A DNA stretch of 59,330 bases from Lacipirellulaceae bacterium (GCA_036499445.1 DASYDU010000311.1:1-59330); one strand, 5' to 3'; counted from the stretch's first letter, positions 11,756 through 53,316 are shown. Numbers and translations are program-made. The notes: generated by a model not told the origin, from the letters alone.

Positions 11756-11784
11756 AACACTTTCCTTCGGGTTGAGGGTAAATT

Positions 11785-11812: not shown

Positions 11813-11840
11813 GGTCAATAATTCGTGCCGGTATCCTCGA

Positions 11841-13562: not shown

Positions 13563-13717
13563 AGGGTGTGCCCTTTCGACTAATGATTTGTTGAATCCAC
13601 TCCTTCGTTGGTCGCGCAGTCGGCAGCCTCGTTCCGTTGCCGAGCGACACCTCAGTTGCGAGTCGTCTTCATTTCACCTCCTTTAACACTTCACCGCTAA
13701 CACTGCGAACGCCACGA

Positions 13718-14074: not shown

Positions 14075-14120
14075 GATGGTATCCTCCAGTGACAAAACTC
14101 GGTCGAGCGACCATCGCCGC

Positions 14121-15614: not shown

Positions 15615-16096
15615 GCGGCATCTCTTTATAGCAATTGCGCAATATGGATCGCCCCAAGTCGTCGCCGAGTACCGCAATGGCAACCCCGAAATCGGTTGGA
15701 GTTCACCTAACTGCACTGGTGACTCGCTGGACGCTGGCTCAATCGACAACGCGAGCTAGACTGGCCGCGTTACGAATTGTTCCGTTCGGTCTGTCCGTGC
15801 CCAGAGATAGCGCGATGAGACGTTCCGATCGACTCATGCCCTTGCGCGGAGCGATGTGGTCTTCGCTCGGACGGCCTCAATATAGGCTTGGGATGGAGTT
15901 TTGCAAGTGACGAGGCGCGTACGAGAAAAAAATATGCACCAGCGTGGCGCGGCAAGACTAGATTCGGTCCGGCTGGCGATTCTCTCAATCTTCACAAGAG
16001 CATCGATAGCAGCGACATGCCAACAAGTTCCCCGGCTAAATTGGGGGGGGTCGGCAATGAATTAAGCGTGGCTCACCGTGACCCGATCGCCGGCGC

Positions 16097-16996: not shown

Positions 16997-17282
16997 GATG
17001 AGAGTCCTCGGTGCAAGTGCGTGACCAGGGCGCGGGACGCTGGCGTTATAACCGGTAAAGTCACTCTATCTTACACGGTACGCCAGGCACAGTCATCAAA
17101 CTCGGCGTCCGAGCGACTGCCTGCAACGATTCTGCCGATTCTTATAGTGGATTCGGCAATGCGGGGCGTGTCGATAATGCCTTTGCGGAGGGCTAAGGTC
17201 GGCGCTCGTTGGTCGACCCTCCGCGCTTCCGGCGGTCCAAGGGATTGGGCCGCCCGAGTTCCGGGCTTATGGGCCAGGCAGC

Positions 17283-31448: not shown

Positions 31449-31884
31449 AAGGTGGACGCCTCTCGTCGCTTCGGCGTACCCGATACCGTCCCGGGATTGT
31501 GCTCAAGGAAGCAAGTGCGACATTCGGTCGCCCGTTTGCGCCAACCGGCCACAACGTGGGCGAGCTTTGCGGAGATTTTCATGCGTCGCGCAAACTCGCA
31601 GAGATTTACTTGACTTTTTCCAATCCCCCCGTTAGTCTGATCGTGATCCGCACCGAGGGAGGTTGCGGCTTCTCGTTCTTTATTCTATTTAGTCGCGCGT
31701 TAGAACGCGGACCAGCGGGCGGCAGTTGCGGGCCGACCGGCGGTAGTTCAGGTCGCGATCGGGCAAATCGCGGCGCAGACCACATTCGTTCCATCGAAGT
31801 TCCGCAGGGCGGACGGCCAATCGCTGGCGCGCATCTGTCGCGCGACCGACAGTCGCTCGCCCAGGGAGAAAGGTGAACCATCGC

Positions 31885-34683
31885 ATGTCACGGATATTTT
31901 TCACACGGTTTGGTGGGAGTCGGGGATCGAAGCGAGTTAAGCGGACGACTACGGGGCGGCGCTCGCGCGGCAGAACCCTCGGAGTGGCCCGCTTGGGGAT
32001 GGAGCAATTGGAAGACCGGGTGATGCTCACGGTCGCGCCGGTCATCGCGCCGATTCCGGACCAGGCCTTCGGCCAGAACCAGACGTTTCACGAACGAGTC
32101 CTCGCTGAGTTCACGCAGCCGGCCGATGCTTCGCCCCACTCGACGACTTTTACCTACAGCATCGATTGGGGCGACAGCCCGATAAACAGCCCGCCGGATA
32201 TTACTACCGGGTCGATCAACACGTTCGTCCAAACCCCTGCCGGTAATGCCTTCGGGTACCTTAGCATCAACGATCCGGACGTACCGGGTGCGCAGCACTT
32301 TTTTAATACCGCCGGCACGTTCACGGTCGCGGTGACCGTCACCAATAGCGATATGCTCTCGGACACGAAGACGTTTACGGCGACGGTCCTGCCCATCGAC
32401 CCCGCGCTCACGTTCGACACGCCGATTACGCCGCCCGTTCACGTCGTCGAAGCTTCGCCCCTCACATTGAACTTGCACAGCACCGGCGCGATCGACTCGA
32501 CGATCACGAGCTGGACCATTAATTGGGGCGACTCGATCGAGACCATTAGCGGCGATCCGTCGACCGCCGATCACACGTACACGACGATTTTTGGCGATGC
32601 GAGCGGCTTGGCGCAGGCCAAATATCAGATCCGCGCCTGGGCGAATGGCAATGGCGGCGAGTTTGCCGCCGCTTCGGCGATCGACGTTGTGGTTGATGAT
32701 GTACAGCCGACGGCCACGATCACGCCCGATCCACCCTTTGTCGACAATGGCGACGGCTCCTTCAACGTGGACGTCAATGAAGGCCAGACGGTGACTCTGA
32801 ATCTCTCCGAATTCGATCCCGGCACGGAACCGCCACTCCAGTGGCTGTTTTTATGGGGAACCGAGGATCCGGATGACCCCATCCCGGAAGTCCTTCCTGG
32901 CAATTCGTCGATAGCGACGCACGTCTACACCGATGGCGATACTCTTGGCGCCACGAACTATTTGATTCAATCGGGCTTTTCGAATGGCTCGGACTTTAGC
33001 GGCAATAACGGGTTCGGGCTCGCAAACGCGGTCAATGTGACCGTACACAACGTCGACCCGACGGCCACGTTTGGCAACAACGGACCAGTGGACGAAGGTT
33101 CGACTGCCAACGTGTCGTTTAGCGGACAATTCGATCCGGGCACGGAAGACACGACGGCCGGTTTGCGCTACGCCTATGACTTCAACAATGACGGCGTCTG
33201 GGACGTTGGCGACGACGGCTCATATGCCCAGGCGTCAACTAGCGCGTCGGTCACCGTCCCGGCCAGCTTTGTGACGGACGGACCAGGAAATTTCACCGTC
33301 AAGGGGCGGATTATCGACAAGGACGACGGTTTCACCGAATACACGACTCACGTGGTTGTGAACAACGTCGCGCCGACCGCGGTTTTGGCAGGCGGCGGCA
33401 CCGTCAATGAGGGGTCGACCGCCAGCGTATCGTTCAGCGGCCAAAGCGACCTCAGCGCGGCCGATACGGCGGCCGGTTTCCACTATTCTTACGACTTTAA
33501 CAACGACGGGATTTGGGAAATCGGCAACGGAACGTATGCCGGTTCGGGGACGAGCGCCTCGACCACAATTCCGGCCAGCTTCACGGCAGACGGACCAGTT
33601 GCCGGAGGACACCTCACCATCAAGGCTCGAATTATCGACAAGGACGGCGGTGCGAGAGACTATATGACGAGCCTGGTCGTCAACAACGTCGCGCCGATGG
33701 CCAATGCGGGCGGACCGTATTCGACATTCGACGATACGGCGATCACGCTCACGGGGACGGCAACGGATCCCGCCGGGGCAGCCGATCCGCTGACCTACGC
33801 TTGGGACTTGGATCACGACATGAACGGCACATTTGAAACGAGCGGGGCGAGCGTGAACTTTGATCCTGTGGCCCTGGGATTCACCGGCAACCAGACGCGC
33901 ACGGTCAGGCTCAAGGTGAGTGATGGCGATGGCGGTGTGTCGATTGTTACGACAACCGTTCAGCTTTTGGGCCAGGGCACGATACTTTCGGGTGGCGTGC
34001 TGTTTGTCGTGGGCAGCGGCACGGCTGGCGACATCGTGCAGGTCGCCAAGAGCGGCAGTCAGATCACCGTCAGCAACGGCGGCACGCAGTCGTTTAGTGC
34101 GGCCGCGGTCTCGCAGATTCAGGTTCGCACGCGCGGCGGCAATGACATTGTGATCGTCGGGCTCGAAGTCACGGTGCCGACTGTGATCGACGGCGGCGCA
34201 GGCAACGACCTGCTCACGGCGGGCGGCGGCGATACGGTGCTGCTCGGTGGTGTCGGCAACGACATTCTCGTCGGCGGGCCGGGTAACAACGTGCTTGTAG
34301 GCGGCGATGGAACTGATATTCTGCTCGGCGCGGGTGGCCGCGACTTGATGATCGGCGGAAAGGGTAGCGACTTGCTCACGGGCGGCACCGGCGAGGACAT
34401 TCTCATCGGCGGCTACACGACATACGACGCGAATGTCGCGTCGCTTGACGCGATCATGGCAGTCTGGTCGTCGTCCGCGAGCTTCAGCGCCCGAGTGGCA
34501 TTGCTCACGGGTTCGGGCGGGTTGCTCAAAGCGGGCGTGACCGTGCTGGATGACGATGCGAGCGACATCATGGACGGTGGCGCTGGTCACGACTTGTACT
34601 TTGCCAATACGAACCTGCACGACCACGACATCGATTTGATCGCGCTGCAGCAGTCGCTCGATTCGCTGGTAGCGGTGAACTGA
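31885..34683 (+). CDS. Giant secreted PKD-like repeat protein with C-terminal RTX (hemolysin-type Ca-binding) repeats
   Basis: ATG 31885 (GTG 31873 also possible), with GGAGAAAGG upstream. Basic N-terminus plus [12 protein letters not shown] motif. Repeated modules of about 105 aa bounded by NV(A/D)[49 protein letters not shown] nonapeptide repeats. Confidence 0.8.
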
Positions 34684-34731: not shown

Positions 34732-34998
34732 TTAGGTCCGGTGTCGAATCAACGCGTCGTATGCGGCATGAGTGCCGACCCAGACCCACAAGTAATCCTC
34801 GCCGACTTCAACAGCCAATGCGCGATAGTGCAGGCCTACGCGAACGGACCAAAGCTCTCCGTCGATTCTCTTGAAATGTAGCGAGGGATGACGCGGATCG
34901 TGACAAAGCAATTGATAGTCACGCTCCGCGAGCCGCTGAGTTTCCTCCGGTAAGCGGCGGTAGCAAGACCAGAAGCGAGGCGTCGCGCGGTGTTTCAT
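34732..34998 (-). CDS. Type II toxin, ParE/RelE-superfamily (ParE-like toxin)
   Basis: 88 aa. FWSCYRRLPEETQRLAERDYQLLCHDPRHPSLHFKRIDGELWSVRVGLHYRALAVEVGEDYLWVWVGTHAAYDAL matches the ParE-like toxin pattern as I recall it. ATGA overlap with the upstream gene. Confidence 0.8.
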   Translation of the reverse strand: MKHRATPRFWSCYRRLPEETQRLAERDYQLLCHDPRHPSLHFKRIDGELWSVRVGLHYRALAVEVGEDYLWVWVGTHAAYDALIRHRT

Positions 34999-35195
34999 CG
35001 CTCGGTGCAGCGACCTTCTTTCAGGTCCTTACGGGCTTCGGCGACTAGCCAGTCTAGTCGGCCGGCGGCTGCGTCGGCCTTCAGTTGCCGGTCCCATTCA
35101 TCGGCGTCGAATTCCGCATACCAGGCGCGAAACGTCGCGCGTTCTTCAGGCGACATGCGCTGCAGGGCTGCTTCGACTTCTTCGACAGTACTCAT
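34995..35195 (-). CDS. Cognate antitoxin (small acidic helical protein)
   Basis: 66 aa. MSTVEEVEAALQRMSPEERATFRAWYAEFDADEWDRQLKADAAAGRLDWL. Located upstream of the toxin and overlapping it by 4 nt. Confidence 0.7.
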   Translation of the reverse strand: MSTVEEVEAALQRMSPEERATFRAWYAEFDADEWDRQLKADAAAGRLDWLVAEARKDLKEGRCTER

Positions 35196-37170: not shown

Positions 37171-40100
37171 ATGTCGATCCGAGTCGCGCTCTATCATCGC
37201 ACCCAGTATTGCTACGACCGCGCGGTCGAGCTGGGGCCGCACCTCGTCCGCCTGCGGCCGGCGCCCCATTGCCGGACGCCGATCCGCAGCTTTTCCTTAC
37301 GGGTGACGCCGGGCGATCATTTCCTGAATTGGCAGCAGGATCCCTATGGCAACTACCTGGCCCGGCTAGTGTTTCACAAACACGTGCCCGAGCTGAAGAT
37401 CGAAGTCGACCTCAACGCCGAGATGACGGTGATCAACCCGTTCGACTTCTTTCTCGAGCCGGACGCGGAGCACTATCCGTTTTCGTACGCGCCGACGCTG
37501 CTCAAGGACTTGATGCCGTTTCTGCACGTGGCCCCTGTGATGGATGGCTCGCCGTTCGCACAGTTTTTGCGGACGGTCGACCGCCGACCGCGTAAAACAA
37601 TCGACTTCCTGGTCGACCTGAATCAACAGCTCAAAAATGCGATCGGGTACGTGATCCGCCTCGAGCCGGGTGTGCAGGCGTGCGACGAAACGCTGGTCAA
37701 AGGGAGCGGGTCTTGCCGCGACACCGGCTGGCTACTGGTGAACGTGCTGCGGCACCTGGGATTTGCCGCGCGGTTCGTCTCAGGTTACCTGATTCAATTG
37801 ACGGCCGACGTGAAATCGCTGGACGGACCCTCCGGGCCGGAGAAGGACTTCACCGACCTGCACGCCTGGGCCGAAGTGTTTTTGCCTGGCGCCGGCTGGA
37901 TCGGGCTCGACCCGACGAGCGGATTGATGGCCGGCGAGGGGCACATTCCGCTGGCCTGTACTCCGGAGCCGATCAGCGCCGCGCCGGTCACGGGCACGGC
38001 CTCGGATGCCAAGTGTGATTTCAGCGTCGTAATGAACGTCACGCGGGTACACGAAGATCCGCGAGTGACAAAGCCGTATACCGAAGAACAATGGGAAGCG
38101 ATCGATAATTTCGGCCGCGAAATTGACGAGCGGCTTGAGGTGGGCGACGTACGGCTGACGATGGGCGGTGAGCCGACCTTTGTTTCGATCGACGACATGG
38201 AAGGAGAGGAGTGGCGGATTGCCGCGGTCGGGCCCCATAAGCGGCGGCTGGCCGGCGATCTCTTGATGCGGCTCAAGCATCGTTGGGCGCCGGGCGGGCT
38301 CTTGCATTTTGGTGAGGGGAAGCAGTATCCGGGCGAGCCGCTACCGCGGTGGGCGCTGCGCTGCTATTGGCGGCTTGACGGAGAGCCGATCTGGCGCGAC
38401 GAATCGTTATTTGCCGATCCGCTGCTGACTGGCTCGCAGACGGCGGACGACGCCAAGCGATTCGGCCGCGAGCTGGCGGCCAGGCTGGGCGTGAATCCCG
38501 ATTTCGTCACGCTTGGCTACGAGGACATGCTGTATTACACGTGGAAAGAGCGCCGGCTGCCGACCAACGTCGATATTCGCGATTCGAAATTGGAGGACGA
38601 GCAGGAGCGGGCTCGCATCGCACGCGTTTTTGAACAAGGGCTCACGGCGCCCGTCGGCTGCGTGCTTCCATTGCGGCGACTATGGTGGCTGGCCGAGCCG
38701 AAGTGGGAGAGCGGCCAGTGGGCGGTGCGATCCGAGGAGATGTTCTTGATACCCGGCGATTCGCCGATGGGTCTGCGACTCCCGCTCGATTCCCTGCCCT
38801 GGTACAGCGGGGCCAAAAACGAAATGCTCGGCTATGCCGTCGATCCAACGGCGCCGCGCGATGCGCTATTGGAATACGATGTGATTCGTGAGCAACTTTT
38901 TGCGCGAAGTGCGCAGTGGGCACACAAGCGGCAACCGGTGCTCGTCGGCGGCGGCTGGAGCGGAGGCGGCGGCCAACCTGGTGGCCGCGGACCTGAGAAC
39001 GGCGCTGGGCCGGGCGGCAACGGCGTGCCGAACGAATGGTTCGCAGATGAGTCTCGCCTGCTCAATCGCAGCATCGAGGCCTCGAGCGTGGTGCGGACCG
39101 CGCTCTGCATCGAGCCCCGCAACGGCGTGATCCACGTCTTCATGCCGCCGCTCGATCGCGTCGAGGACTATCTGGAGCTGGTCACCGCGGTCGAAGACAC
39201 GGCCGCGGCGCTCGCCATGCCGGTCGTTGTCGAAGGTTACTTGCCGCCGCACGATCCGCGGCTCGACCACATCAAAGTGACGCCCGATCCCGGCGTGATC
39301 GAGGTCAACATTCATCCGGCCGATCATTGGGACGAGCTGGTCGACATTACGACCAGTGTCTACGAGGACGCCCGGCTCTCACGGCTGGGCACGGAAAAGT
39401 TTGACCTCGACGGCACCCACACCGGCACCGGTGGCGGCAACCACGTCGTCTTGGGCGGCAAGACGCCGGGAGACAGCCCGTTTGTGCGCCGTCCCGATGT
39501 GCTGCGGAGCCTGGTGGCCTACTGGCACAATCATCCGTCGCTTTCGTACTTACTGTCGGGCTCATTCATCGGTCCCACGAGTCAGTCGCCGCGCGTCGAC
39601 GAAGGCCGTCGCGACGCTGCTTACGAGCTCTCGATTGCGTTCGAACAAATCCCGGCCGAAAATACCTGTCCGCCGTGGCTGGTGGACCGGGTCTTCCGGC
39701 ATTTGCTCGTGGACGGGACCGGCAACACGCATCGCTCTGAGTTTTGCATCGACAAGCTGTGGTCGCCGGACTCGTCGTCGGGCCGCTTGGGCCTGGTCGA
39801 GTTCCGAGCGTTTGAGATGCCGCCCCACGCGAGGATGAGCCTCGCGCAGCAAGTTTTGTTGCGGGCGCTGGTGGCTCGGTTTTGGGCTCATCCCTACAAG
39901 GAGCGGCTGGTAAATTGGGACACCACGCTGCACGACCGGTACTTACTACCCCATTTCGTCCGGCTCGATTTCGAAGACGTGATGGAAGAATCGCGGGCTG
40001 CGGGCTATGAAATGGAGATCGATTGGTTCGCGCCCCACTTCGAATTCCGCTTCCCCGTGATGGGCGACTTCACGCAGCGGAGCATGCGCGTCGAGCTCCG

Positions 40101-40593
40101 CAAAGCGATCGAGCCCTGGTACGTGCTCGGCGAGGAACCGGCCGGCGGCTACACCGCGCGATATGTCGATTCATCGGTCGAGCGGCTCCAGGTAAAAGTA
40201 GTCGGTATGACCGATCCGCGGCACGTCGTGACCTGCAACGGCCGTCGAGTGCCATTGCATCCGACGGGAGTTCAAGGCGAATATGTAGCGGGTGTGCGTT
40301 ATCGCGCGTGGCAGCCGCCAAGCTGTTTGCATCCGACGATCCCAGTCGATACGCCGTTGGTGTTCGATCTGGTCGACACGTGGCAAAAGCGCTCATTGGG
40401 CGGCTGCGTGTATCACGTGGGACATCCAGGCGGGTTGAATCCGGAAACGTTCCCCGTGAACGCGTTTGAAGCGGAGAGCCGGCGGGCTGCCCGGTTCCTG
40501 CGAATCGGACATCGGGGCGGCGTACTGCCCGAGATCCGTGAGGAAACGAATCCCGATTTCCCGCTGACGCTGGATTTGAGGCGGGGCAGGTAA
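37171..40593 (+). CDS. Transglutaminase-like N-terminal module fused to DUF2126
   Basis: 1140 aa. Bact_transglu_N-like MSIRVALYHRTQYCYDRAV...RLRP. Cys-His-Asp core (GSCRDTGW, DLHAWAEVF, GWIGLDPTSG), followed by a long DUF2126-like C-terminal region. Confidence 0.88.
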   Translation: MSIRVALYHRTQYCYDRAVELGPHLVRLRPAPHCRTPIRSFSLRVTPGDHFLNWQQDPYGNYLARLVFHKHVPELKIEVDLNAEMTVINPFDFFLEPDAEHYPFSYAPTLLKDLMPFLHVAPVMDGSPFAQFLRTVDRRPRKTIDFLVDLNQQLKNAIGYVIRLEPGVQACDETLVKGSGSCRDTGWLLVNVLRHLGFAARFVSGYLIQLTADVKSLDGPSGPEKDFTDLHAWAEVFLPGAGWIGLDPTSGLMAGEGHIPLACTPEPISAAPVTGTASDAKCDFSVVMNVTRVHEDPRVTKPYTEEQWEAIDNFGREIDERLEVGDVRLTMGGEPTFVSIDDMEGEEWRIAAVGPHKRRLAGDLLMRLKHRWAPGGLLHFGEGKQYPGEPLPRWALRCYWRLDGEPIWRDESLFADPLLTGSQTADDAKRFGRELAARLGVNPDFVTLGYEDMLYYTWKERRLPTNVDIRDSKLEDEQERARIARVFEQGLTAPVGCVLPLRRLWWLAEPKWESGQWAVRSEEMFLIPGDSPMGLRLPLDSLPWYSGAKNEMLGYAVDPTAPRDALLEYDVIREQLFARSAQWAHKRQPVLVGGGWSGGGGQPGGRGPENGAGPGGNGVPNEWFADESRLLNRSIEASSVVRTALCIEPRNGVIHVFMPPLDRVEDYLELVTAVEDTAAALAMPVVVEGYLPPHDPRLDHIKVTPDPGVIEVNIHPADHWDELVDITTSVYEDARLSRLGTEKFDLDGTHTGTGGGNHVVLGGKTPGDSPFVRRPDVLRSLVAYWHNHPSLSYLLSGSFIGPTSQSPRVDEGRRDAAYELSIAFEQIPAENTCPPWLVDRVFRHLLVDGTGNTHRSEFCIDKLWSPDSSSGRLGLVEFRAFEMPPHARMSLAQQVLLRALVARFWAHPYKERLVNWDTTLHDRYLLPHFVRLDFEDVMEESRAAGYEMEIDWFAPHFEFRFPVMGDFTQRSMRVELRKAIEPWYVLGEEPAGGYTARYVDSSVERLQVKVVGMTDPRHVVTCNGRRVPLHPTGVQGEYVAGVRYRAWQPPSCLHPTIPVDTPLVFDLVDTWQKRSLGGCVYHVGHPGGLNPETFPVNAFEAESRRAARFLRIGHRGGVLPEIREETNPDFPLTLDLRRGR

Positions 40594-40625
40594 TTGCTAA
40601 TTTGATTTAAAGGCGGATTGACCAC

Positions 40626-43166
40626 GTGAGCGTGAAGGAGCCCTGTAGCGAAGCCAATCCGTTCGGCGACTACGCGATCACACCGGGTCACTACGACGAG
40701 GTGTATGCGGCGGTCGGCGACGTGCGTCCCCATTGGCAGCGGTTTTTTGAGCTGACCGGCGAATTGGGAAAGGACGAGTTCGCGCGGCGCTGGGAACAAA
40801 CCCGCCGGCTGCTCGAGCAAAACAGCCTGACGTATCCCGACCCGAGCGATCCGACGGGCGGGCGGCGGCCCTGGGAACTTGATCCCTATCCTTTGCTGCT
40901 GGCGGCCGACGAGTGGAAGGCGATCGCCGCCGCGCTCCGCCAGCGGGCCACACTCTTCGACCTGGTGCTGCGTGATCTCTACGGCCCACAACTGTTGATT
41001 CAGCGCGGCCTCATTTCGGCCGAGGTCACGTTTCGACATCCCGATTTCCGCTTGCCGTATTGCGGGCAGCGGCCGCCGCTGGGAACGTTTCTCCATTTCT
41101 ATGCCGCGGATTTGACCCGCTCGCCCGACGGAAAGTGGTGGGTGCTCACCGATCATTGCGAAGCGCCGACCGGCGTCGGCTTTGCGCTCGAAAATCGGCT
41201 AGCGCTGTCGCGGATGCTGCCCGAAGTTTTTCGGCAATGTCAGGTCGAGCGACTGGCACCGTATTTCGTGCAGGTCCGCGAGCAATTGGCGCGGATTGCG
41301 CCCAGCCGCCATCGCGACCCGCGGATCGTGATGCTCACCCAAGAAGCGGGGAGCGCCAGCTACTTTGAAGATGCTTACCTCGCGCGATACCTCGGCTACA
41401 CGCTCGTCGAGGCTGGCGATCTGGCGGTGCGAAACAATCAAGTCTTCATGAAGACGCTGGGCGGGTTGATGCCGGTCGACGTCTTGTTGCGGCGGCCCAA
41501 TAGCGACGAATGTGATCCGCTCGAACTTTCGGACAAGTCGGCCTTTGGCGTGGCCGGGTTGATGCAGGCAGCTCAAAGCGGCAAGGTGGCGGTCGCCAAT
41601 ACGCTGGGGAGCGGGCTTGTCGAGTCGCCGGTGTTCATGGCGTTCCTGCCACAATTGTGTCAGGCGCTTTTGAGCGAACCGCTGAAGATGCCCGGCGTGG
41701 CCACCTGGTGGTGCGGCGATGCGCAGTCGCGGCGCTACGTTTTGGATCACCTCGACGAGTTAGACATTCAACCGGCGTACCGCCGTCGTGGTATGGAGCA
41801 GAAGGCGGCACGGCAAATGGCCGACTGGTCGCCCGAGGTGTTGGCCGCGCGGATCGAAGCGCAACCGTACAATTTTGTGGCTCAAGAGCGCGTGGTGCGA
41901 TCGACTGCGCCGACCTGGTCGGGCGACGACTTGCTCGGCTCGTTCGTGGCGCTGCGAACGTTTGCCGTGGCCAACGGCGAGGGCTATGCCGTGATGCCTG
42001 GTGGTTTGACGCGGGTTTCCTCGTCGCTCGAGTCGCTCCGTCTGTCGATCGTCGAAGGGCAGCGGAGCAAAGATACGTGGATTCTCTCGGAAGGCCCTGT
42101 GGCGCCGATCACGCTGCTGCGGACCACGGACGAAGACGTGCCGCTGCGCCGCGGCGGCGTGGACCTGCCTAGCCGCGTGGCGGAGGATTTCTTCTGGCTC
42201 GGTCGGCAAGCGGAGCGGGCCGAAGCGCTCGCGCGACTTTTGCGTACCGTGACTTTGCGGCTCACCAGCGAGGCCGGCAGCTCGCTTTTGCCCGAGTTAC
42301 CCTACCTGCTGCGCGTGCTCGCCGAGCGCGGTCAGATCGAGCCCGGCTTTGTCGTCGAGGAGATCAGGACGCAACTGCCGGCGATCGAAGGTTTGCTGCC
42401 GATTTCGGTGTTTGACGATCAGCAGGTGGGCTCGCTGCGGTCGATGGTCAGCAAATTGGCCTACTTGGGCTCGATCGTTCGCGACCGGATTTCGATTCAC
42501 ACCTGGCGCATCCTGCGGCAGATGGACGAGCAGTTTTGGCCGGCCAGGAGCGACGTCCACTTGGCCGACATGCTGGAACGGATCGACGGTCTGTTGGTCA
42601 ATCTTTCCGCGTTTACCGGGCTGGTGCTCGAAAGCATGACGCGGACACAGGCCTGGCAGTTTTTGCACCTCGGCCGGCGCTTGGAGCGGGCGCTGCAGAC
42701 AACCAGCTTGATCCACATCATGCTCCAAGGCAGCGGCGCGACCGAGCACGCGGCGCTCGAAGCGCTTCTCGAAGTGGCCGACAGCATTATGACCTACCGT
42801 TCGCGGTATTTGGCCCGCGTGCAGCTTGGGCCGGTGCTCGACCTCTTGCTGACCGACGAGTCGAATCCGCGCAGCGTGGCGTTTCAACTGGTCAACTGCG
42901 TGATCCACGTCGGCCAACTGCCGCGCGACGTGTACGAACTGGATGACCCAGCGGAACAAAAGCTGGCCACGTCGCTGCTGCAAACGATTCGCCAAATGGA
43001 TAGTCAAGAACTGGCCCGGGCCTATGTGCTCGGCGACACCGAGCGGCTCGAATGGCTCTTCATGAGGATCGAATCGGCGCTGCCGCGATTGTCGGACGCG
43101 ATTTCGCACAAATACTTGATCCACGCCGGCCCGACGCAGCGGCTGGCAGAGATCGATCCGGCGTAA
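40626..43166 (+). CDS. Circularly permuted type-2 ATP-grasp fused to alpha-E domain
   Basis: 846 aa, GTG start. COG2308-like N-terminus (YDEVYAAVGDVRPHWQRFFE...NSLTYP). Alpha-E half begins LPSRVAEDFFWLGRQAERAEALARLLR. Confidence 0.88.
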   Translation: MSVKEPCSEANPFGDYAITPGHYDEVYAAVGDVRPHWQRFFELTGELGKDEFARRWEQTRRLLEQNSLTYPDPSDPTGGRRPWELDPYPLLLAADEWKAIAAALRQRATLFDLVLRDLYGPQLLIQRGLISAEVTFRHPDFRLPYCGQRPPLGTFLHFYAADLTRSPDGKWWVLTDHCEAPTGVGFALENRLALSRMLPEVFRQCQVERLAPYFVQVREQLARIAPSRHRDPRIVMLTQEAGSASYFEDAYLARYLGYTLVEAGDLAVRNNQVFMKTLGGLMPVDVLLRRPNSDECDPLELSDKSAFGVAGLMQAAQSGKVAVANTLGSGLVESPVFMAFLPQLCQALLSEPLKMPGVATWWCGDAQSRRYVLDHLDELDIQPAYRRRGMEQKAARQMADWSPEVLAARIEAQPYNFVAQERVVRSTAPTWSGDDLLGSFVALRTFAVANGEGYAVMPGGLTRVSSSLESLRLSIVEGQRSKDTWILSEGPVAPITLLRTTDEDVPLRRGGVDLPSRVAEDFFWLGRQAERAEALARLLRTVTLRLTSEAGSSLLPELPYLLRVLAERGQIEPGFVVEEIRTQLPAIEGLLPISVFDDQQVGSLRSMVSKLAYLGSIVRDRISIHTWRILRQMDEQFWPARSDVHLADMLERIDGLLVNLSAFTGLVLESMTRTQAWQFLHLGRRLERALQTTSLIHIMLQGSGATEHAALEALLEVADSIMTYRSRYLARVQLGPVLDLLLTDESNPRSVAFQLVNCVIHVGQLPRDVYELDDPAEQKLATSLLQTIRQMDSQELARAYVLGDTERLEWLFMRIESALPRLSDAISHKYLIHAGPTQRLAEIDPA

Positions 43167-43190
43167 GTGGGGTTCGGGGCTTGGGATTCA

Positions 43191-44075
43191 ATGCGCTACA
43201 CTATCCGCCATGCGACGTTTTATTCCTACACCGAACCGGTGCCGGTCTGCCACAATCAGGTGCATCTCGCGCCGCGGACAACGGCGTCCCAGACCTGCAG
43301 CGAACACGAGCTGGCGATCGATCCCGTGCCTTCGATTCGAGCGCGGCGTCATGATTACTTCGGCAACTTCGTCGACTACTTTTCGATTCAAGAGGCGCAT
43401 GAGGGGCTCGACGTTACGGCCACTAGCACTGTCGAGGTGACGCCGCCCAAGGCCCGCAAGTTGTCCGAATCGCCGGCCTGGGAGGATGTCGCCGGTTACA
43501 TCCCGAGAGATCTCAGCACGGACGGTTTGGCGGTCTACCAGTTTACGCTGCCTTCGCCGCGCGTCGCGCCGACGGCAGCGCTGCGAGAGTATGTTTCGCC
43601 AAGTTTCACGAAGCGGCGGCCAATCGCGGAGGCCGTGCGCGATTTGACGGCCCGAATCCACGCCGAATTCACGTTCGATCCCAAGGCCACCACGGTCCAT
43701 ACGCCGCCCGAAGAATTCCTCGCGCTGAAGCGCGGGGTGTGCCAGGACTTTGCGCATCTTTCGATCGGTTGCTTGCGGACGCTCGGGCTGGCGGCGCGCT
43801 ACATCAGCGGCTACGTCTGCACGGCGCCGCCGCCGGGAATGCCGCGATTGCAGGGTGCCGACGCGTCGCACGCTTGGGTTTCGGTCTATTGCGGACCGCT
43901 CGGTTGGATCGACTTCGATCCGACGAATGACGCGGTGGTGAGCGATTCGCACATCACGATCGGCTGGGGCCGCGACTACGCCGACGTCTGTCCGATTCAG
44001 GGCGTGTTCGTAGGCGGCGGCGAGCATAGCATGAACGTCGGCGTCGATGTGATTCCGATTCAAGAGAAGGCGTAG
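43191..44075 (+). CDS. Transglutaminase-family protein (Bact_transglu_N + transglutaminase core)
   Basis: Start moved to ATG 43191 (MRYTIRHATFYSYTEPV). Catalytic triad motifs GVCQDFAHL, ASHAWVSVY, GWIDFDPTN. Confidence 0.88.
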   Translation: MRYTIRHATFYSYTEPVPVCHNQVHLAPRTTASQTCSEHELAIDPVPSIRARRHDYFGNFVDYFSIQEAHEGLDVTATSTVEVTPPKARKLSESPAWEDVAGYIPRDLSTDGLAVYQFTLPSPRVAPTAALREYVSPSFTKRRPIAEAVRDLTARIHAEFTFDPKATTVHTPPEEFLALKRGVCQDFAHLSIGCLRTLGLAARYISGYVCTAPPPGMPRLQGADASHAWVSVYCGPLGWIDFDPTNDAVVSDSHITIGWGRDYADVCPIQGVFVGGGEHSMNVGVDVIPIQEKA

Positions 44076-44081: not shown

Positions 44082-46637
44082 ATGTATTGGCGGGCGGTGT
44101 GTGCGAACGCGGTGCTGATTTTGTCGCTGGTGGCGCGATCATATGCCGTGGGGCCGGATGTTCAACCGGCGACAGACGCCAACCCGCTAACATGGCCGAC
44201 GGTCACCCGCGAAATGCGGCCCTGGACACGGTGGTGGTGGCTTGGCTCGGCGGTAGACAACGAGAATCTGACGCGGCTCCTCGAGACGTATCACGCGGCG
44301 GGGCTCGGCGGCGTCGAAATCACATGCCTCTACGGTGTTCGCGGCGCGGAGTCGCGTGAACTGCCGTATCTTTCTGACCGCTGGGTCGCGGCCGTCCAAC
44401 ATACGCTGGATGAGGCCAAGCGACTCGACATGGGCGTCGATCTGCCGACCGGTTCCGGTTGGCGAATGGGCGGCCCATCCGTTACAGAAGCGGACGAAGA
44501 TTTGCAGCTAGTGATCTCGGGCGAACCGCCGACCATCACATCGCGATGGTCACGCGATAATGTCAAGCGACCGGCGCCGGGCGGCGAAGGACGCAGCATC
44601 AACCCCTATTCGCGGCAGTCGCTTGATCATTATCTCGATCACTTTGCGCAGGCAATCAAGGGGCTGCCACCTGCAGGCATTCGCGCTCAATTTCACGACT
44701 CCTTCGAATACGACGGCAATTGGTGCGACGATTTCCTCGCTCGGTTCGAACGCCGTCGGGGCTACCGTTTGCAGGACCATCTCTCGGCGCTTGCCGGGGA
44801 AGGAGATGCGGACGACGCGGCCCGCGTAAAGTGCGATTATCGCGAAACGTTGTCTGACTTGGTGCGCGAGAACCTGGTCCAGCCGTGGGTCGCCTGGTCG
44901 CACGCCAGCGGCATGCTCGCCCGCAATCAGGCTCACGGCTCGCCCGGCAATTGGCTCGACCTCTACGCGGCCTGCGATATTCCAGAGACCGAGCACTTCG
45001 GCCGACTTGGCAATAGCGGCACCGAACGCCTGGTGTTTCAATTTGCTTCGTCGGCCGCGCACGTTGCCGGCCGGCCGCTGGTGTCGAGCGAGACCTGCAC
45101 TTGGCTCGACGAACATTTTCAGGAAACGCTCGCCGAGATGAAGGAGCTCGTCGACCGTTTGTTCTTAGCAGGCATCAACCACGTCATTTATCACGGCACG
45201 GCCTATTCACCGGCAGATGCCGCGTGGCCCGGCTGGCTATTTTATGCGGCCAGCGAAATCAATCCGCAAAACCCCATCTGGCACGATCTGCCGCAGCTCA
45301 ATGAATATGTGATGCGCTGCCAATCGCTGCTGCAATCGACGCAATCGGACAACGACGTCCTGCTCTATTGGCCGATCTTTGATCAATGGCAGGACGCGCG
45401 CGGGCTGCGCCAGCGCATGCAGGTCGAGAACGTCGCCGAATGGTTTCATCCAACGCCGTTCGGCCAGACCGCCAAATGGCTCGAAGAGCAAGGATACGCG
45501 TTCGATTATGTCTCCGACGGCTTGCTCGCCAACTGCCGCGTGCGCGATGGCCGCCTCCACGCGCCAGGTGGCGACTACTCGGCGATTGTCGTGCCGCGTG
45601 CCAAGTTGATGCCGCTCAAAACGCTTCAGGTGCTCGCCAACTTGGCACGAGGAGGCGTTTCCCTAGTCTTTCTTGGCGGCATGCCCAGCGGCCCGCCGGG
45701 CCTCAAAGCCGATGACGACCGCGCCGCTTGGGACCAAATGATTGCTCAAATAAAAACCACCGGCCGCTACCTGGAAGGCGAAGAACTAGGGGCGCTGCTC
45801 ACCGAAGCAAACGTCCGCTGCGAATCGTGGCGCGCCAGCGAACATCTGGCCTTCCATCGCCGCACTTGGTCCGGCGGCCACCTCTACTTCGTCAAGAATG
45901 AATCCGATCAGCCGTACGACGGAAAGATTGTTCCGGCGGTTGATTGGCAGGCTGCAGCGATCATGAGTCCGGCCGATGGACGAGTTGGCATGGCCGATGG
46001 AACGAACGGCATCCGCTTGCAACTCGCGCCGCACCAGACGGTATTCGTGAAAACGATTCGCGAGGCGGTCGCCGGGCCCGCTTGGCCATACCGCGAGATG
46101 CTGGGTGAACCGATGGCGCTCGACGGCGAATGGCACGTCGAATTCGCGACCGGCGGGCCGGAGCTCCCGCCGCCATTTTCCGCGCATCGCCTCGTTAGCT
46201 GGACGCAGCTGGCTGGCGCCGAAGGTGAGCGATTTGCTGGTACCGCGCGATATTCGGCTGACTTCAATCCCGACGTCCGCGCTAATCGCTACTTGCTCGA
46301 TCTGGGCGCGGTGGCCGATAGCGCGCTGGTCGAGCTCAATGGCAAGATCGTAGCCACGCTGATCTCGCCACCCTTCCAAGTGGAGATTGGCCCGCTCGTG
46401 GACGGCGACAATCACTTGGTCGTCGACGTGACGAACGTGGCCGCGAACCGCATCCGCGATCTCGATCGCCGCCACATCGAATGGAAGATCTTCAAGGACA
46501 TCAACTTCGTCAACATCCAATACAAGCCGTTCGACGCTTCGCAATGGCCCGTGCGCGAGGCCGGCCTGCTGGGGCCGGTCACGCTAACGCCACTCGCTGA
46601 AGCGCACGACACAGACGCGCCGCACTCGAGCAAATAA
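44082..46637 (+). CDS. Secreted glycoside hydrolase, GH106-like (putative alpha-L-rhamnosidase family)
   Basis: 851 aa with a signal peptide. MRPWTRWWWLGSAVDNENLTRLLETYHAAGLGGVEI...LPTGSGWRMGGP matches the N-terminal pattern I recall for this family. The family call is from memory only. Confidence 0.65.
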   Translation: MYWRAVCANAVLILSLVARSYAVGPDVQPATDANPLTWPTVTREMRPWTRWWWLGSAVDNENLTRLLETYHAAGLGGVEITCLYGVRGAESRELPYLSDRWVAAVQHTLDEAKRLDMGVDLPTGSGWRMGGPSVTEADEDLQLVISGEPPTITSRWSRDNVKRPAPGGEGRSINPYSRQSLDHYLDHFAQAIKGLPPAGIRAQFHDSFEYDGNWCDDFLARFERRRGYRLQDHLSALAGEGDADDAARVKCDYRETLSDLVRENLVQPWVAWSHASGMLARNQAHGSPGNWLDLYAACDIPETEHFGRLGNSGTERLVFQFASSAAHVAGRPLVSSETCTWLDEHFQETLAEMKELVDRLFLAGINHVIYHGTAYSPADAAWPGWLFYAASEINPQNPIWHDLPQLNEYVMRCQSLLQSTQSDNDVLLYWPIFDQWQDARGLRQRMQVENVAEWFHPTPFGQTAKWLEEQGYAFDYVSDGLLANCRVRDGRLHAPGGDYSAIVVPRAKLMPLKTLQVLANLARGGVSLVFLGGMPSGPPGLKADDDRAAWDQMIAQIKTTGRYLEGEELGALLTEANVRCESWRASEHLAFHRRTWSGGHLYFVKNESDQPYDGKIVPAVDWQAAAIMSPADGRVGMADGTNGIRLQLAPHQTVFVKTIREAVAGPAWPYREMLGEPMALDGEWHVEFATGGPELPPPFSAHRLVSWTQLAGAEGERFAGTARYSADFNPDVRANRYLLDLGAVADSALVELNGKIVATLISPPFQVEIGPLVDGDNHLVVDVTNVAANRIRDLDRRHIEWKIFKDINFVNIQYKPFDASQWPVREAGLLGPVTLTPLAEAHDTDAPHSSK

Positions 46638-46661: not shown

Positions 46662-49100
46662 CTACACAACCAGCGGCGGCAGTACCGTGATCGTCAGGTC
46701 GGACGACGCCGAGAGCAGGCCGTCGCTCACGGTAAGCCGCAAGACGTAGGTGCCCGCGATGCTGAATTGGGCCGACGTATTGGCTGTCGCGGCGTTTCCA
46801 AATGTCACGATGCCCGGCCCGGAAACTTTGATCCACGTCGTCGAGAGGGTGGCCGGCGTTGGCAAGCCGTCGTCCGCCAGGCTGGGATGCAACGTGGCGG
46901 CGGCCGGCAACGTGATGGTCTGAGCGACCCCGGTATTGACTTGGGGCTTTTGATTGACGGGCCCCACGGTGAGCGCGGCTATTTGGGACGGCGTGAGGTT
47001 GGCGGGAACATGATACGTGATGGTGAGCTTGGGCCGTTGAGAAACGGTGCTGGTCTCGCTCGTCGTGATTTGGAATCCATCAGTAATCGCGTAGTTTTGC
47101 AGAATCACGCCGAAATTCGACGACGGGTTGTTCACCCAGGCCTGTAGCGCGGCGATGCCCGCCTGGTTCAGGACAATTTGGGCGAGGCCCTTCTTCGTCG
47201 GTGTGATCTGGCCAATCGCGGTGGAACCATGGTCGGCAGCGCCCGACGCGCCGGCAACACTCCAAGGATTGCCGCTGGACGCCTGGTTCCAGGTGGCGGT
47301 GAGCTCATCCCAAGCCCGGTTCATGACATAGAGCGGGAAGGATTTGCTGCTGGCGCTGGTGGCGTTTAATTGAATGGTTGCCGAATCGACGATGCCGCTG
47401 GTCGGAATCGCGCTAATATCCCAATCGAACAAGTCGCCGATGTCGGGGCTGCCATCGGCTTTGTAGGTCGCCGTGGTGCCGAAATTGGAAGTCTTCGCGC
47501 CGCTGTCGAGTTTCGTATCGCGAGTTCCCTGATAGCTGCCGGTCGGCGACGCGCCGTCTTGGAAGCTGATGGTTACGGGCGAGCTTGGATCGATCACGGT
47601 GACAGTCAAGTCATCTGTGGTGCTGGCCGCTCCGTCGCTGGCGGAAAGCCGCAGCACGTATTGGCCCGCCAGGCTGAAGGACGCCCCGGTTGACGTGGCC
47701 GAGCCGTTCGTGAAGCTCACGTTGCCCGGTCCCGAAACCTTCGACCACGTGGTGGTAATGGTGCCAGGGGGATTGGGCAATTGATCGTCGGTGACTATGC
47801 CTGCAAGCTGCACGGAAGAACCGACCACGATTGACTGGTCGCTTCCGGCGTTGACGACAGGCGGCAAATTGACCGGGCCGGTCGGAACCGGAATCGGATT
47901 TACGCCGTCAAAACGGAACGTGACACTCTTAGCTTTGCTCCCGCCTTCGGCCATGAAGACCACGTCATCGGTGAATTCTTGCTTCGTCGTCGTGACGTTG
48001 TTGGTCGATCCGGCAATGAGCGTCTGAACCGGGCTCAGCGAGATCGTACCCAGCGGCGACCAGCGATAGAGGATATTGCCGCCGCCGTCTTTCGACGTAT
48101 ACGCGATGACAAGCCTATTGGCGACCTCGTCGAGCACGATCACCGGTCGCGTGCCGCCGTTATCGACCGTGTAGGGAGCGTCCCACACGCCGTTGGGCCG
48201 GCGGACGAGCAAGATAATTTGGGCATAGCCGGATGTGTCGTAGCCAGTCTTGGCGGCGACATACAACGTGCCGTCCGAGGCCACGGACAAGTGCATGTGG
48301 TCGTCGGCCATGCCGTGGACTTTGTTGAACGCGTATTGACCGGCCGGAACTTCGTTCGTCGTCCACAGTGTGGGAAGCGTGCCGTCAACATGGGTGCGGA
48401 AACCAAAACGCTTAGTGCTTTGGTCCGACCAGAAGATGCCCAACTGGTGGTTCGGCATTTCAATGATCGCAGAGATGTCGTCGCCGGTTACGCCGGTGGC
48501 GACGGTGATCGGCGCGCTCCAGCTCGAATAATTGCCGTCGCTATAGCGAACTTCGATCGTGCTACTGGCGTCCGAGGCAAGCCACATCCGGCCCGTGGAG
48601 TCGAGGGCAATCGTGGCCGTTTCGACGCCGCTCGAAAGGCTGATGTTGACCGGCTGAGGCTGTTGCGACGACATCTTGTAATTGTTGAGCCCGGTGTCGA
48701 ACTGCACGGTCGCAAACTGCGATGACGTACCGGAGTACAAGAGGATGTAAGTGAGATTGCCGTCCGCCAAGACGTCGGCTTCGACTGACTTGCTTGTCGA
48801 TAGCTTCAACTGTTGGCTCCACGTCGTGCCTTCCAGCCGAAAGAGCCAAGTTCCCGAACTATTGGGCATGACCGCATACCATTTACTTTGGTACTCCCAA
48901 ATCTTAGATTGCGGTTTTTGGCCAGTGTCGTTTGATACGGACAGGTCGGCGAGCGAAGTGATCGAGAGCATCTGCCGCGATTCGAGCGACTCGAACGCCA
49001 ATTGGCGGCGGGCGGCCGGGCGGCGCGAGGCTCGCTTGCGAGCATTCGACGATTTGCCGGAAATGGAGCTGAACAGACGATCGACGAATTGGTTGGCCAT
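46662..49100 (-). CDS. Large secreted protein: beta-rich N-terminal module, two PKD/Ig-like domains flanking a DNRLRE-like domain
   Basis: 812 aa. Basic N-terminus plus FESLESRQMLSI motif. Two related Ig-like units (TTTWSKVSGPGNVSF...YVLRLSASDG / STTWIKVSGPGIVTF...YVLRLTVSDG). DNRLRE-like stretch TRDTKLDSGAKTSNFG...DWDISAIP...AWDELTATWN. Confidence 0.75.
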   Translation of the reverse strand: MANQFVDRLFSSISGKSSNARKRASRRPAARRQLAFESLESRQMLSITSLADLSVSNDTGQKPQSKIWEYQSKWYAVMPNSSGTWLFRLEGTTWSQQLKLSTSKSVEADVLADGNLTYILLYSGTSSQFATVQFDTGLNNYKMSSQQPQPVNISLSSGVETATIALDSTGRMWLASDASSTIEVRYSDGNYSSWSAPITVATGVTGDDISAIIEMPNHQLGIFWSDQSTKRFGFRTHVDGTLPTLWTTNEVPAGQYAFNKVHGMADDHMHLSVASDGTLYVAAKTGYDTSGYAQIILLVRRPNGVWDAPYTVDNGGTRPVIVLDEVANRLVIAYTSKDGGGNILYRWSPLGTISLSPVQTLIAGSTNNVTTTKQEFTDDVVFMAEGGSKAKSVTFRFDGVNPIPVPTGPVNLPPVVNAGSDQSIVVGSSVQLAGIVTDDQLPNPPGTITTTWSKVSGPGNVSFTNGSATSTGASFSLAGQYVLRLSASDGAASTTDDLTVTVIDPSSPVTISFQDGASPTGSYQGTRDTKLDSGAKTSNFGTTATYKADGSPDIGDLFDWDISAIPTSGIVDSATIQLNATSASSKSFPLYVMNRAWDELTATWNQASSGNPWSVAGASGAADHGSTAIGQITPTKKGLAQIVLNQAGIAALQAWVNNPSSNFGVILQNYAITDGFQITTSETSTVSQRPKLTITYHVPANLTPSQIAALTVGPVNQKPQVNTGVAQTITLPAAATLHPSLADDGLPTPATLSTTWIKVSGPGIVTFGNAATANTSAQFSIAGTYVLRLTVSDGLLSASSDLTITVLPPLVV

Positions 49101-51393: not shown

Positions 51394-53316
51394 GTGTCGC
51401 ACAATCTGATTCAAGTCTTGTTAGTCGATGACGACGCGACCGACGCGGGTTTGACCACCCGAGCGTTAGCCAAGATTGGCCACTCGCGATTCACGACCCA
51501 GCGCGCCGGCTCGCTGGCCGAGGCCGCCGAGAAAGTCCGCGGCGTGAAGTTTGACGTCGCGCTCTTGGACCTAGGCCTGCCGGATTCGCCACGGAATGAA
51601 ACCCTGGCTCGGTTCCGCGCAAGCTGCTCGGCGGATCTGCCGGTCATCGTGCTCACCGGCCTGGCTGATGAAAAAAGTGCGCTGGAAGCCCTGGGCTGTG
51701 GTGCGCAGGACTACATCACCAAGGACGACGTGACGTCCGATCTGCTGTCGCGGACCATTAGCTACGCTCTGCAGCGCCAACACCTGCTGGAACAGCTTAA
51801 GGCGTCCAACGACCTCTTGGCGCAGAAAAATGCGCGGTTGGCTGAGCTCTACGAGACGGCGCAGCAATTCGTCGAAAACGTGTCACACGAGTTCCGCACG
51901 CCGCTGACCGTGATCCGCGAATTCACCTCGATCATCCAGGACGGTTTGGATGGCCCCGTGACGCCGAAGCAATTTGAGCATTTGGGAAAGGTTCTGCACC
52001 GCACGGACGACTTAGCGCTGATGGTCGATGACATGCTTGATATCAGCAAACTCGAGGCGGGGTTGTTGGGTGTCTGGCGGCGTCCCTGTAACATAGGGGA
52101 GACGCTCGATGCCGTGCGCGCTCTGCTCAAAAGTCGCGCCGACTCGAAGCAGATTCAACTCAGCGTTTCACTGCCGGAGGCCCTGCCGGATGTCTTTTGC
52201 GACGAGGAGAAGGCCCGCCGCGTGCTGACCAACTTGACGGTGAACGCACTGAAGTTCACGCCCGACGGTGGAACCGTCAAACTTTGGGCCAAAATTGGCA
52301 AGGGCGAAGCGGAGGTGATTGTCGGCGTGACCGATACTGGACCGGGAATCAGCCCCGAGAATCTGGCGATCATCTTTGAGCGGTTTCAGCAGGTCGACCA
52401 GGGTCTCAAATCGAGTACCAAGGGATTTGGCCTAGGGCTCAACATCGCTAAGGAGCTGGTCGCGCTAAATTTGGGCCGGATCGATGTCGCAAGCACCATC
52501 GCCGCGGGGAGCACCTTTTCGTTTACCTTGCCAATCAATGACATTCCGTCGGTTTTTGAGCGGTATTTAGACCGCATGAGCGCAGCGCCGCGTGCCGGCG
52601 AAACGGTTGGGCTCTTCACGGCCAGCGCCGACTCTTCCCTCGATGCGTCCGTGCGACCCTTGGTCGACGAGTTTTTACAACGGTCCGTCCGCGCCTATGA
52701 CCTCGTGATGCAGCGAGATACCCGAACCTGGGTCGTGGCGACAGCTTGCCACGAACAAGACAGCGATGACTTGATTCGACGCCTACTGAGCGAGTGGCAA
52801 GCCTTCGTGCGAAATTGCCCGCACGCCGAGCTGCCGCAACTTGAGCTGCGGCAACACGGAGCCAATCACCTGGCGAGCCAACGCCCCGAGTTGACGAGCG
52901 CATTTGCGGCGCTGATGAAGCCGGACCGCGATCAGCCCTGCGCGTGTCGCCGGATCCTGGTCGTGGATGACGATGGCGAAGTGAGCCACTGCCTGGGAAT
53001 TCGGCTGCGGGCCGCTGGTTACGAAGTGATCTCGGCGATGGATGGCGAAGCGGGGTTGTCTGCCGCGTTGCTGCAACATCCGGACGCCGTCGTGCTCGAC
53101 GTGCGAATGCCCAAGAAAGACGGTTTGACCGTTCTCCGCGAGCTACGCCGCCATGAATTCACCAAAGACGTGCCGATCGTGATGCTCTCGGCGTCGATTT
53201 CAGACCAGCATCGCGCGCTCGAGGCGGGTGCAAATTTCTTTGTACCGAAGCCATACGAAGCGAAAGACGTTTTGTCGGCCATCGAAACATCTATGCGTGA
53301 AGAGGTGCTGCTGTGA
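51394..53316 (+). CDS. Hybrid sensor histidine kinase: REC - HisKA - HATPase_c - unknown domain - REC
   Basis: 640 aa, GTG start (AGGGGGG upstream). REC1 VLLVDDD...ALLDLGLP...VLTG...ITKD. H-box VSHEFRTPLTVI. N/G boxes NLTVNALKFTPDGG, DTGPGISPE, GFGLGL. REC2 ILVVDDD...VVLDVRMP...MLSA...VPKP. Confidence 0.88.
   Translation: MSHNLIQVLLVDDDATDAGLTTRALAKIGHSRFTTQRAGSLAEAAEKVRGVKFDVALLDLGLPDSPRNETLARFRASCSADLPVIVLTGLADEKSALEALGCGAQDYITKDDVTSDLLSRTISYALQRQHLLEQLKASNDLLAQKNARLAELYETAQQFVENVSHEFRTPLTVIREFTSIIQDGLDGPVTPKQFEHLGKVLHRTDDLALMVDDMLDISKLEAGLLGVWRRPCNIGETLDAVRALLKSRADSKQIQLSVSLPEALPDVFCDEEKARRVLTNLTVNALKFTPDGGTVKLWAKIGKGEAEVIVGVTDTGPGISPENLAIIFERFQQVDQGLKSSTKGFGLGLNIAKELVALNLGRIDVASTIAAGSTFSFTLPINDIPSVFERYLDRMSAAPRAGETVGLFTASADSSLDASVRPLVDEFLQRSVRAYDLVMQRDTRTWVVATACHEQDSDDLIRRLLSEWQAFVRNCPHAELPQLELRQHGANHLASQRPELTSAFAALMKPDRDQPCACRRILVVDDDGEVSHCLGIRLRAAGYEVISAMDGEAGLSAALLQHPDAVVLDVRMPKKDGLTVLRELRRHEFTKDVPIVMLSASISDQHRALEAGANFFVPKPYEAKDVLSAIETSMREEVLL

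Follow-up and report, generated by a model that had tools for sequence, protein, structure and literature searches.

The 59,330-nucleotide stretch of Lacipirellulaceae bacterium DNA analysed here (GCA_036499445.1, DASYDU010000311.1:1-59330; hereafter the window) carries three plus-strand genes for proteins that we call P1, P2 and P3. P1 joins a transglutaminase-like module to DUF2126, a putative amidoligase; P2 joins a circularly permuted ATP-grasp module to an Alpha-E domain; and P3 is a stand-alone transglutaminase-like protein. This copy is an ordinary member of a widespread cassette, of the Mycobacterium tuberculosis Rv2566/Rv2567/Rv2569c type, that was already described by comparative genomics in 2008–2009, and it is the less remarkable because the cassette is extremely common and keeps the same order in at least four phyla. 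We tentatively propose that the cassette forms a short amide-linked compound, probably of the gamma-glutamyl type, on or from universal metabolites and removes it again.

An earlier note on this DNA, made from the sequence alone, had described three consecutive plus-strand genes separated by 32 and 24 nucleotides and encoding proteins of 1,140, 846 and about 295 amino acids. Open reading frames (ORFs) and Pfam bear this out, and every domain assignment was reproduced (Table 1). The longest ORF of gene 3 (43167-44075, plus strand) would encode 302 amino acids; the most likely start is the ATG at 43191, giving 294, because the Joint Genome Institute (JGI) call on an identical metagenome contig has this start and homologues align from that methionine. 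With this start the gaps are those that the note gave. P2 matched CP_ATPgrasp_1 (280 bits) in addition to CP_ATPgrasp_2 and Alpha-E, and P3 matched both Bact_transglu_N and Transglut_core; scores throughout are far beyond chance. Genes identical to the three are present on two JGI metagenome contigs, and the closest named relatives belong to Pirellulales and Lacipirellulaceae planctomycetes, at about 69% identity. Searches of the cassette against NCBIfam, and against the PADLOC models of anti-phage defence at E <= 0.01, returned zero matches. A check of N termini and hydrophobicity found no signal-peptide-like N terminus and no hydrophobic or membrane segment in any of the three proteins, and the cassette is therefore predicted to be cytoplasmic.

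Both transglutaminase-like modules have intact Cys-His-Asp triads, as previously claimed, and all six codons were verified in the window. The P1 residues C182, H231 and D247 are invariant across 20 planctomycete homologues, and in a set of 44 diverse sequences they were found in 30/35, 33/35 and 35/36 sequences, respectively. Those of P3 (C184, H227 and D243 in the 294-residue numbering) are kept in 97% or more of 64 homologues drawn from several phyla. Scores against the profiles of the transglutaminase-like superfamily (PF01841 with the N-terminal domain PF08379) were 54.1 and 81.8 bits for P1 and 71.5 and 89.2 bits for P3, and all exceed the cut-offs. The N-terminal module of P1, as modelled with AlphaFold (see below), is predicted to have a papain-like fold and is a strong match to the solved structure 3isr, a transglutaminase-like putative cysteine protease (Foldseek E 6e-14, TM(target) 0.73–0.75); P3 matches the same entry by sequence (E 1.3e-10). 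Some DUF2126 proteins of about 750–830 amino acids (for example, P0176, P0185 and P0255) align to P1 only from about its residue 635, near their own residue 250–300. The transglutaminase-like module may thus be missing from such proteins, and the fusion may not be universal in the DUF2126 family.

Modelling of the whole of P1 depended on the alignment used. The model from 20 planctomycete sequences was unusable (predicted local distance difference test, pLDDT, 54.6), and an alignment of 44 diverse homologues was needed to obtain one with a pLDDT of 88.3 and a predicted template-modelling score of 0.87, in which residues 548–557 and 585–638 are the sole disordered stretches. The DUF2126 domain is interrupted at the second of these by a glycine-rich, low-complexity stretch (GGGWSGGGGQPGGRGPENGAGPGGNG...). 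This stretch, predicted disordered, differs from homologue to homologue, whereas P1 is otherwise very strongly conserved. When the model was compared with the Protein Data Bank (PDB) using Foldseek, more than 25 of the top 50 matches were glutamine-synthetase-family entries, including glutamine synthetases of several organisms, GmaS (gamma-glutamylmethylamide synthetase) and the depupylase Dop (7oyh), with probabilities of 0.84–0.99. Candidate glutamine-synthetase-like motifs are present in P1, namely GGEPTF (E334), IEVN (E711), GGGNH (H758) and VEFRAFE (E877 and R879), and these five residues are conserved in about 80–90% of the 44 diverse homologues. They are collinear with E129, E212, H269, E357 and R359, which we take to be the corresponding active-site residues of glutamine synthetase. 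A Pfam scan of the region at E <= 10 gave nothing apart from DUF2126, and no glutamine-synthetase gene was found among the compared loci. The weak structural matches are consistent with, without proving, the placement of Rv2566 in the carboxylate-amine ligase superfamily by Iyer et al. (2008). DUF2126 is predicted to be a carboxylate-amine ligase of the glutamine-synthetase type.

The second candidate ligase lies in P2. Residues 23–488 align to residues 10–473 of the 474 in PDB entry 3n6x, a structural-genomics target annotated 'putative glutathionylspermidine synthase' (E 4.5e-66); by this comparison the ATP-grasp module is homologous to 3n6x over its whole length, and together with its Pfam matches this places it in the circularly permuted type 2 (PF14403/PF04174). 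Within the Alpha-E domain, W524, G526, R527, E530-R531 and E687-R688 are kept in at least 97% of 67 sequences, and a sequence search with this domain found no solved relative.

The cassette is both common and conserved. P1 has at least 8,000 homologues, all 8,000 scored candidates having matched at E <= 1e-10, and a library clustered at 50% identity contained 2,936 clusters at E <= 1e-30. We scanned one genome per species and obtained 80 loci with a full-length P1 homologue, 55–67% identical to P1 across loci from Planctomycetota, Acidobacteriota, Verrucomicrobiota and the alpha-, beta-, gamma- and delta-proteobacteria, including Pseudomonas, Burkholderia, Variovorax and Marinobacter. The order P1, P2, P3, with identical strand, was found in 62 of the 68 loci with enough downstream sequence, at median gaps of about 85 nucleotides (P1–P2) and about 6 nucleotides (P2–P3). 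The genes flanking the cassette are not conserved with it, and we therefore regard the three genes as a unit that is kept together. A few loci have genes inserted between P1 and P2 (a porin, a tetratricopeptide repeat (TPR) protein, a histidine kinase or a cyclase); these lie on the opposite strand and are unrelated. Median identities were 58.5% for P1, 38.9% for P2 and 45.3% for P3. Judged by its sequence identity, P1 is as well conserved as a core metabolic enzyme, and we read a median of 58.5% across phyla as suggesting an invariant, probably universal, substrate.

The ATP-grasp gene that adjoins the DUF2126 gene encodes the fusion with Alpha-E in 64/65 loci. A second circularly permuted ATP-grasp copy lies upstream in 28/65, mostly with a separate Alpha-E gene (for example, at 4820-15829 in locus L008). 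Such an extra, unfused pair beside the cassette sometimes brings an additional transglutaminase-like gene. The rule of one thiol enzyme per ligase holds in the window cassette and in extended clusters such as that of L008.

The M. tuberculosis cluster Rv2566/Rv2567/Rv2569c has the same three protein types as the window cassette, Rv2567 presumably being the circularly permuted ATP-grasp and Alpha-E protein. The window genes are co-directional and nearly contiguous, whereas in M. tuberculosis Rv2569c is on the opposite strand and Rv2568c lies between it and Rv2567. Iyer et al. (2008) described Rv2566 as a fusion of a transglutaminase-like domain with a carboxylate-amine ligase, and Rv2569c has been described as a transglutaminase-like protein of the YebA superfamily (PLoS Pathogens 2024). 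Iyer et al. (2008) saw no Pup-like small ORF with the Rv2566 family and proposed peptide-forming reactions. The earlier note had cited a comparative-genomics prediction of a peptide-ligation or tagging system, and we found it as described: for Valas & Bourne (2008), Zhang & Aravind (2012) and two papers on the structure of the proteasome homologue Anbu, the neighbourhood of ATP-grasp, Alpha-E and transglutaminase genes is a predicted peptide-ligase or tagging system, unconfirmed by experiment.

The cassette is related to the Anbu operon yet distinct from it. The Anbu operon of Pseudomonas, Yersinia and cyanobacteria shares its ATP-grasp, Alpha-E and transglutaminase-like families with the cassette, order included; the cassette differs in that ATP-grasp and Alpha-E are fused in one gene and a DUF2126 ligase is added. 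The note's statement that an Anbu protease is lacking here held: neither tblastn with the Anbu of locus L038 nor Pfam searches of 29 long ORFs found an Anbu or proteasome homologue in the window. Among the 80 loci only 4 have Anbu near the cassette. In L038, genes for ATP-grasp, Alpha-E and an Anbu-like proteasome homologue come immediately after the cassette (14929-18229). Because unfused ATP-grasp and Alpha-E pairs adjoin cassettes, in L038 together with Anbu, the two systems appear to be paralogous modules able to sit side by side. On the biochemical side, an Anbu structure paper reported that the ATP-grasp protein of the Y. bercovieri Anbu operon releases phosphate from ATP, and that Anbu itself neither shows peptidase activity nor associates with its operon partners in a complex.

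Three characterised systems resemble parts of the cassette. Escherichia coli Gss (glutathionylspermidine synthetase/amidase) combines in one protein an amide-forming ligase and a papain-like thiol amidase, which hydrolyses the bond that the ligase makes, and the closest solved relative of the P2 ATP-grasp module is annotated as a putative glutathionylspermidine synthase. The Gss amidase, however, is a CHAP domain on an ATP-grasp-type ligase, whereas the thiol domain of the cassette is transglutaminase-like and sits on the DUF2126 ligase; we do not claim membership in the Gss family, and the likeness does not imply a shared substrate. PafA and Dop share the glutamine-synthetase fold and make or break an isopeptide bond by way of a gamma-glutamyl phosphate. 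Dop is among the weak fold matches of P1, and the Rv2566 family came up in the same search of the superfamily by Iyer et al. (2008). Unlike pupylation loci, the window lacks a small Pup-like ORF as well as proteasome and Mpa genes, and sequence similarity of P1 to PafA or Dop is undetectable. In glutathione synthesis, the gamma-glutamyl ligase GshA and then the ATP-grasp ligase GshB produce a tripeptide in two ATP-dependent steps. Here the parallel is one of analogy only, with no detectable sequence relation, and the cassette adds thiol enzymes and Alpha-E.

In the scheme that we infer, including its ligase chemistry, its pairing logic, the small-molecule nature of its substrate and each chemical step, the three genes would form a self-contained cytoplasmic cassette of two pairs of ligase and thiol enzyme. 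One pair would be fused in P1, as the predicted DUF2126 ligase and the Cys-His-Asp transglutaminase-like domain. The other would consist of the P2 ATP-grasp ligase, with Alpha-E as an accessory domain, and P3, whose genes nearly touch. The ligases, two candidates of different folds, would use ATP to activate carboxylates as acyl-phosphates and would join amino-acid-type units in two steps, in an order that parallels GshA then GshB, to give a short amide-linked compound, probably of the gamma-glutamyl type. The two thiol enzymes would hydrolyse or transfer those bonds, as the Gss amidase opposes the Gss synthetase, and such opposing activities could let the cell set the level of the product quickly. 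We favour a small amide-linked compound because the compared loci revealed no gene-encoded tag and no conserved target gene, and because P1 is conserved like a core metabolic enzyme.

Several points weigh against this proposal. Large proteins with extra domains, and the occasional Anbu neighbour, fit a protein substrate at least as well. The glutamine-synthetase-type Foldseek matches of P1 are weak (E ~1e-2, TM(target) ~0.3, root-mean-square deviation 7–11 Å, with the aligned query range not reported). When DUF2126 was searched against PDB sequences, using both the sequence and the family profile, only transglutaminase matches were returned and no solved ligase relative. An hhalign comparison of the family profile with E. 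coli GlnA did pair GGEPTF with GPEPEF, at a score that is statistically insignificant. In the literature, no enzyme activity, substrate or product is reported for any DUF2126 protein. A 2026 preprint in which Rv2567 was chosen as an ATP-binding-domain candidate found that Rv2567 and Rv2411c do not make gamma-aminobutyric acid (GABA)-trehalose, a result that rules out one product only.

The same enzymes could act on proteins, the ligases adding amino-acid or short peptide tags (for example, polyglutamate-like ones, as RimK/TTL do) to side chains or termini and the transglutaminase-like enzymes removing them. We consider this doubtful. In its favour, characterised enzymes of the transglutaminase fold are known to act on proteins or peptides; PafA and Dop, the latter among our Foldseek matches, demonstrate that glutamine-synthetase-fold enzymes can do so; the ligases carry large accessory domains; and the cassette adjoins an ATP-grasp/Alpha-E/Anbu operon in L038, with Anbu nearby in the few loci counted above. 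Tagging is also the original interpretation of Iyer and Aravind, stated in Iyer et al. (2008), Zhang & Aravind (2012) and the Anbu literature. However, we found no conserved small ORF or target gene nearby, and no such modification in the literature since the prediction of 2008–2009. Anbu is absent from most loci and from the window, and where it has been studied its lack of peptidase activity and of complexes with operon partners counts against a tagging role. Nitrogen scavenging or catabolism, in which the ligase would gamma-glutamylate an amine or peptide and the thiol amidases would later release glutamate or ammonia, or in which the transglutaminase-like domains would deamidate glutamine residues under nitrogen limitation, seems to us improbable. 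PuuA and PuuD of the polyamine route offer a precedent, as a glutamine-synthetase-like ligase paired with a Cys-based hydrolase, and GmaS and glutamine synthetases are among the fold matches of P1. A CP_ATPgrasp_1 gene in Bradyrhizobium is listed with a candidate RpoN-type promoter sequence, but a scan for the sigma-54 consensus upstream of the cassette in the window gave no promoter-like site. The related Anbu operon is induced by nitrogen limitation in Pseudomonas putida (Anbu papers), but these data belong to that operon and not to the DUF2126 cassette, with which no oxidase, dehydrogenase, transporter or regulator is conserved.

A role outside the cell, in which the stand-alone transglutaminase-like protein, secreted or in the envelope, would cleave or cross-link foreign or envelope proteins, we judge very improbable. 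Its sole basis is a report on Rv2569c (PLoS Pathogens 2024), described there as a secreted 'serine protease' associated with the cell wall. Casein, fibronectin and E-cadherin were reported as its substrates, and mutants had phenotypes in infection assays on cell layers and mice. The activity was inhibited by the serine-protease inhibitors 4-(2-aminoethyl)benzenesulfonyl fluoride (AEBSF) and phenylmethylsulfonyl fluoride (PMSF) and not by E-64 or N-ethylmaleimide (PLoS Pathogens 2024). This fits poorly, because the site of the P3 family is Cys-His-Asp, a signal peptide is lacking and the inhibitor profile is not that of a thiol enzyme; P1 and P2 likewise lack both a signal peptide and any hydrophobic segment. 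That the gene is closely linked to those of two predicted ATP-dependent ligases in environmental, free-living bacteria speaks for a function inside the cell that is coupled to ATP. The report does not explain the cassette. It qualifies, without overturning, the note's remark that no substrate, product or phenotype had been identified: in the published literature on the DUF2126 family and the M. tuberculosis homologues, we came across no work that establishes a function, substrate, product or system-level phenotype.

Beyond the short amide-linked compound that we favour, a bolder possibility is that the cassette makes and erases an undiscovered covalent mark or metabolite common to very different bacteria, which we offer as a speculation that is on balance unlikely. 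One possibility would be a gamma-glutamyl-type amino-acid tag on a conserved cytoplasmic protein, resembling tubulin glutamylation or pupylation without a gene-encoded tag; another would be a new glutathione-like peptide. If this were true, the strong conservation of the 1,140-residue ligase would reflect an invariant target.

Table 1 Features of the cassette in the window. Residue numbers refer to the encoded proteins.
Feature	Position	Strand	Description	Basis
Gene 1 (P1)	37171-40593	+	ATG start, 1,140 amino acids; transglutaminase-like module fused to DUF2126 putative amidoligase	ORF, Pfam, identical JGI gene call
P1 transglutaminase-like module	37189-37914	+	Bact_transglu_N 7–83, Transglut_core 134–248	Pfam, triad, Foldseek 3isr
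P1 triad codons	C182 37714-37716; H231 37861-37863; D247 37909-37911	+		Codons verified in window
P1 DUF2126 region	38008-40581	+	Residues 280–1137	Pfam PF09899, 1287 bits, profile positions 3–826 of 826
Gly-rich linker inside DUF2126	38923-39084	+	Residues 585–638	pLDDT <50; no consensus in 20-planctomycete alignment columns
Gene 2 (P2)	40626-43166	+	GTG start, 846 amino acids; circularly permuted ATP-grasp fused to Alpha-E	ORF, Pfam, JGI call
P2 CP_ATPgrasp_2 domain	40890-42020	+	Residues 89–465	Pfam 442 bits; 3n6x homology
P2 Alpha-E domain (PF04168)	42165-43118	+	Residues 514–831	Pfam 216.7 bits; conserved W524, G526, R527, E530, R531, E687, R688
Gene 3 (P3)	43191-44075	+	294 amino acids, stand-alone transglutaminase-like	Pfam, JGI start, 3isr match
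P3 triad codons	C184 43740-43742; H227 43869-43871; D243 43917-43919	+		Codons verified in window

We also looked for further components. No conserved small tag-like ORF, conserved upstream element or conserved target gene was found near the cassette in the compared loci, and the window region upstream of the cassette has no positional counterpart in other loci. Around the cassette, Rfam gave no match, promoter and terminator scans gave nothing above chance, with no convincing terminators between the genes, and a composition check detected no anomaly at the cassette. ORFs upstream of the cassette in loci L008 and L069 were considered as a fourth component or tag gene and rejected as lineage-specific. 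The upstream neighbour in the window is a divergently oriented alpha-L-fucosidase gene that is not beside the cassette in other taxa. Downstream, a gene for an 851-residue protein of glycoside hydrolase family 106 (GH106; alpha-L-rhamnosidase-like) at 44082-46637 on the plus strand begins 6 nucleotides past the gene 3 stop; given this spacing and the shared strand, it and the cassette may be transcribed together. None of the 80 loci of other genomes has it beside the cassette. We rejected both the GH106-like gene and the fucosidase as partners, since neither is conserved with the cassette.

Elsewhere the window looks like ordinary planctomycete chromosome, with sulfatases, glycoside hydrolases, a resistance-nodulation-division (RND) efflux system, kinases and two-component proteins. 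Flanking the cassette at a distance of one gene on each side are the genes for two large, apparently secreted or surface-located proteins: one of 936 amino acids with PKD and RTX calcium-binding repeats (31873-34683, plus strand) and one of 812 amino acids with K319L-like PKD and CBM96-like domains (46662-49100, minus strand). Between the former and the fucosidase, at about 34732-35195 on the minus strand (mapped from L081 5261-5724), JGI calls on an identical contig give an 88-residue protein with a weak ParE_like match and a 66-residue partner, a pair that looks like a toxin-antitoxin module. At 10067-13562 on the minus strand, the longest ORFs of two neighbouring sulfatase genes overlap by about 245 nucleotides, so the true start of the downstream one (10067-12085) is probably further inside its ORF. 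A 767-residue protein (24495-26798, plus strand) has multihaem cytochrome c motifs with HEAT and TPR repeats, an unusual combination. At 51394-54818 on the plus strand, a hybrid histidine kinase gene is followed, with a 4-nucleotide overlap, by one for a 501-residue protein in which three receiver-domain stretches were matched.

Among functionally uncharacterised bacterial gene sets, the cassette ranks with the more widely distributed and strongly conserved, and it occurs in Pseudomonas, Burkholderia and M. tuberculosis. Because genetically tractable organisms carry the same genes, the planctomycete copy adds no special experimental handle. Knowing what the cassette makes would reveal either a small-molecule pathway or a protein modification that is new to bacterial physiology, and would also shed light on the related Anbu operon.

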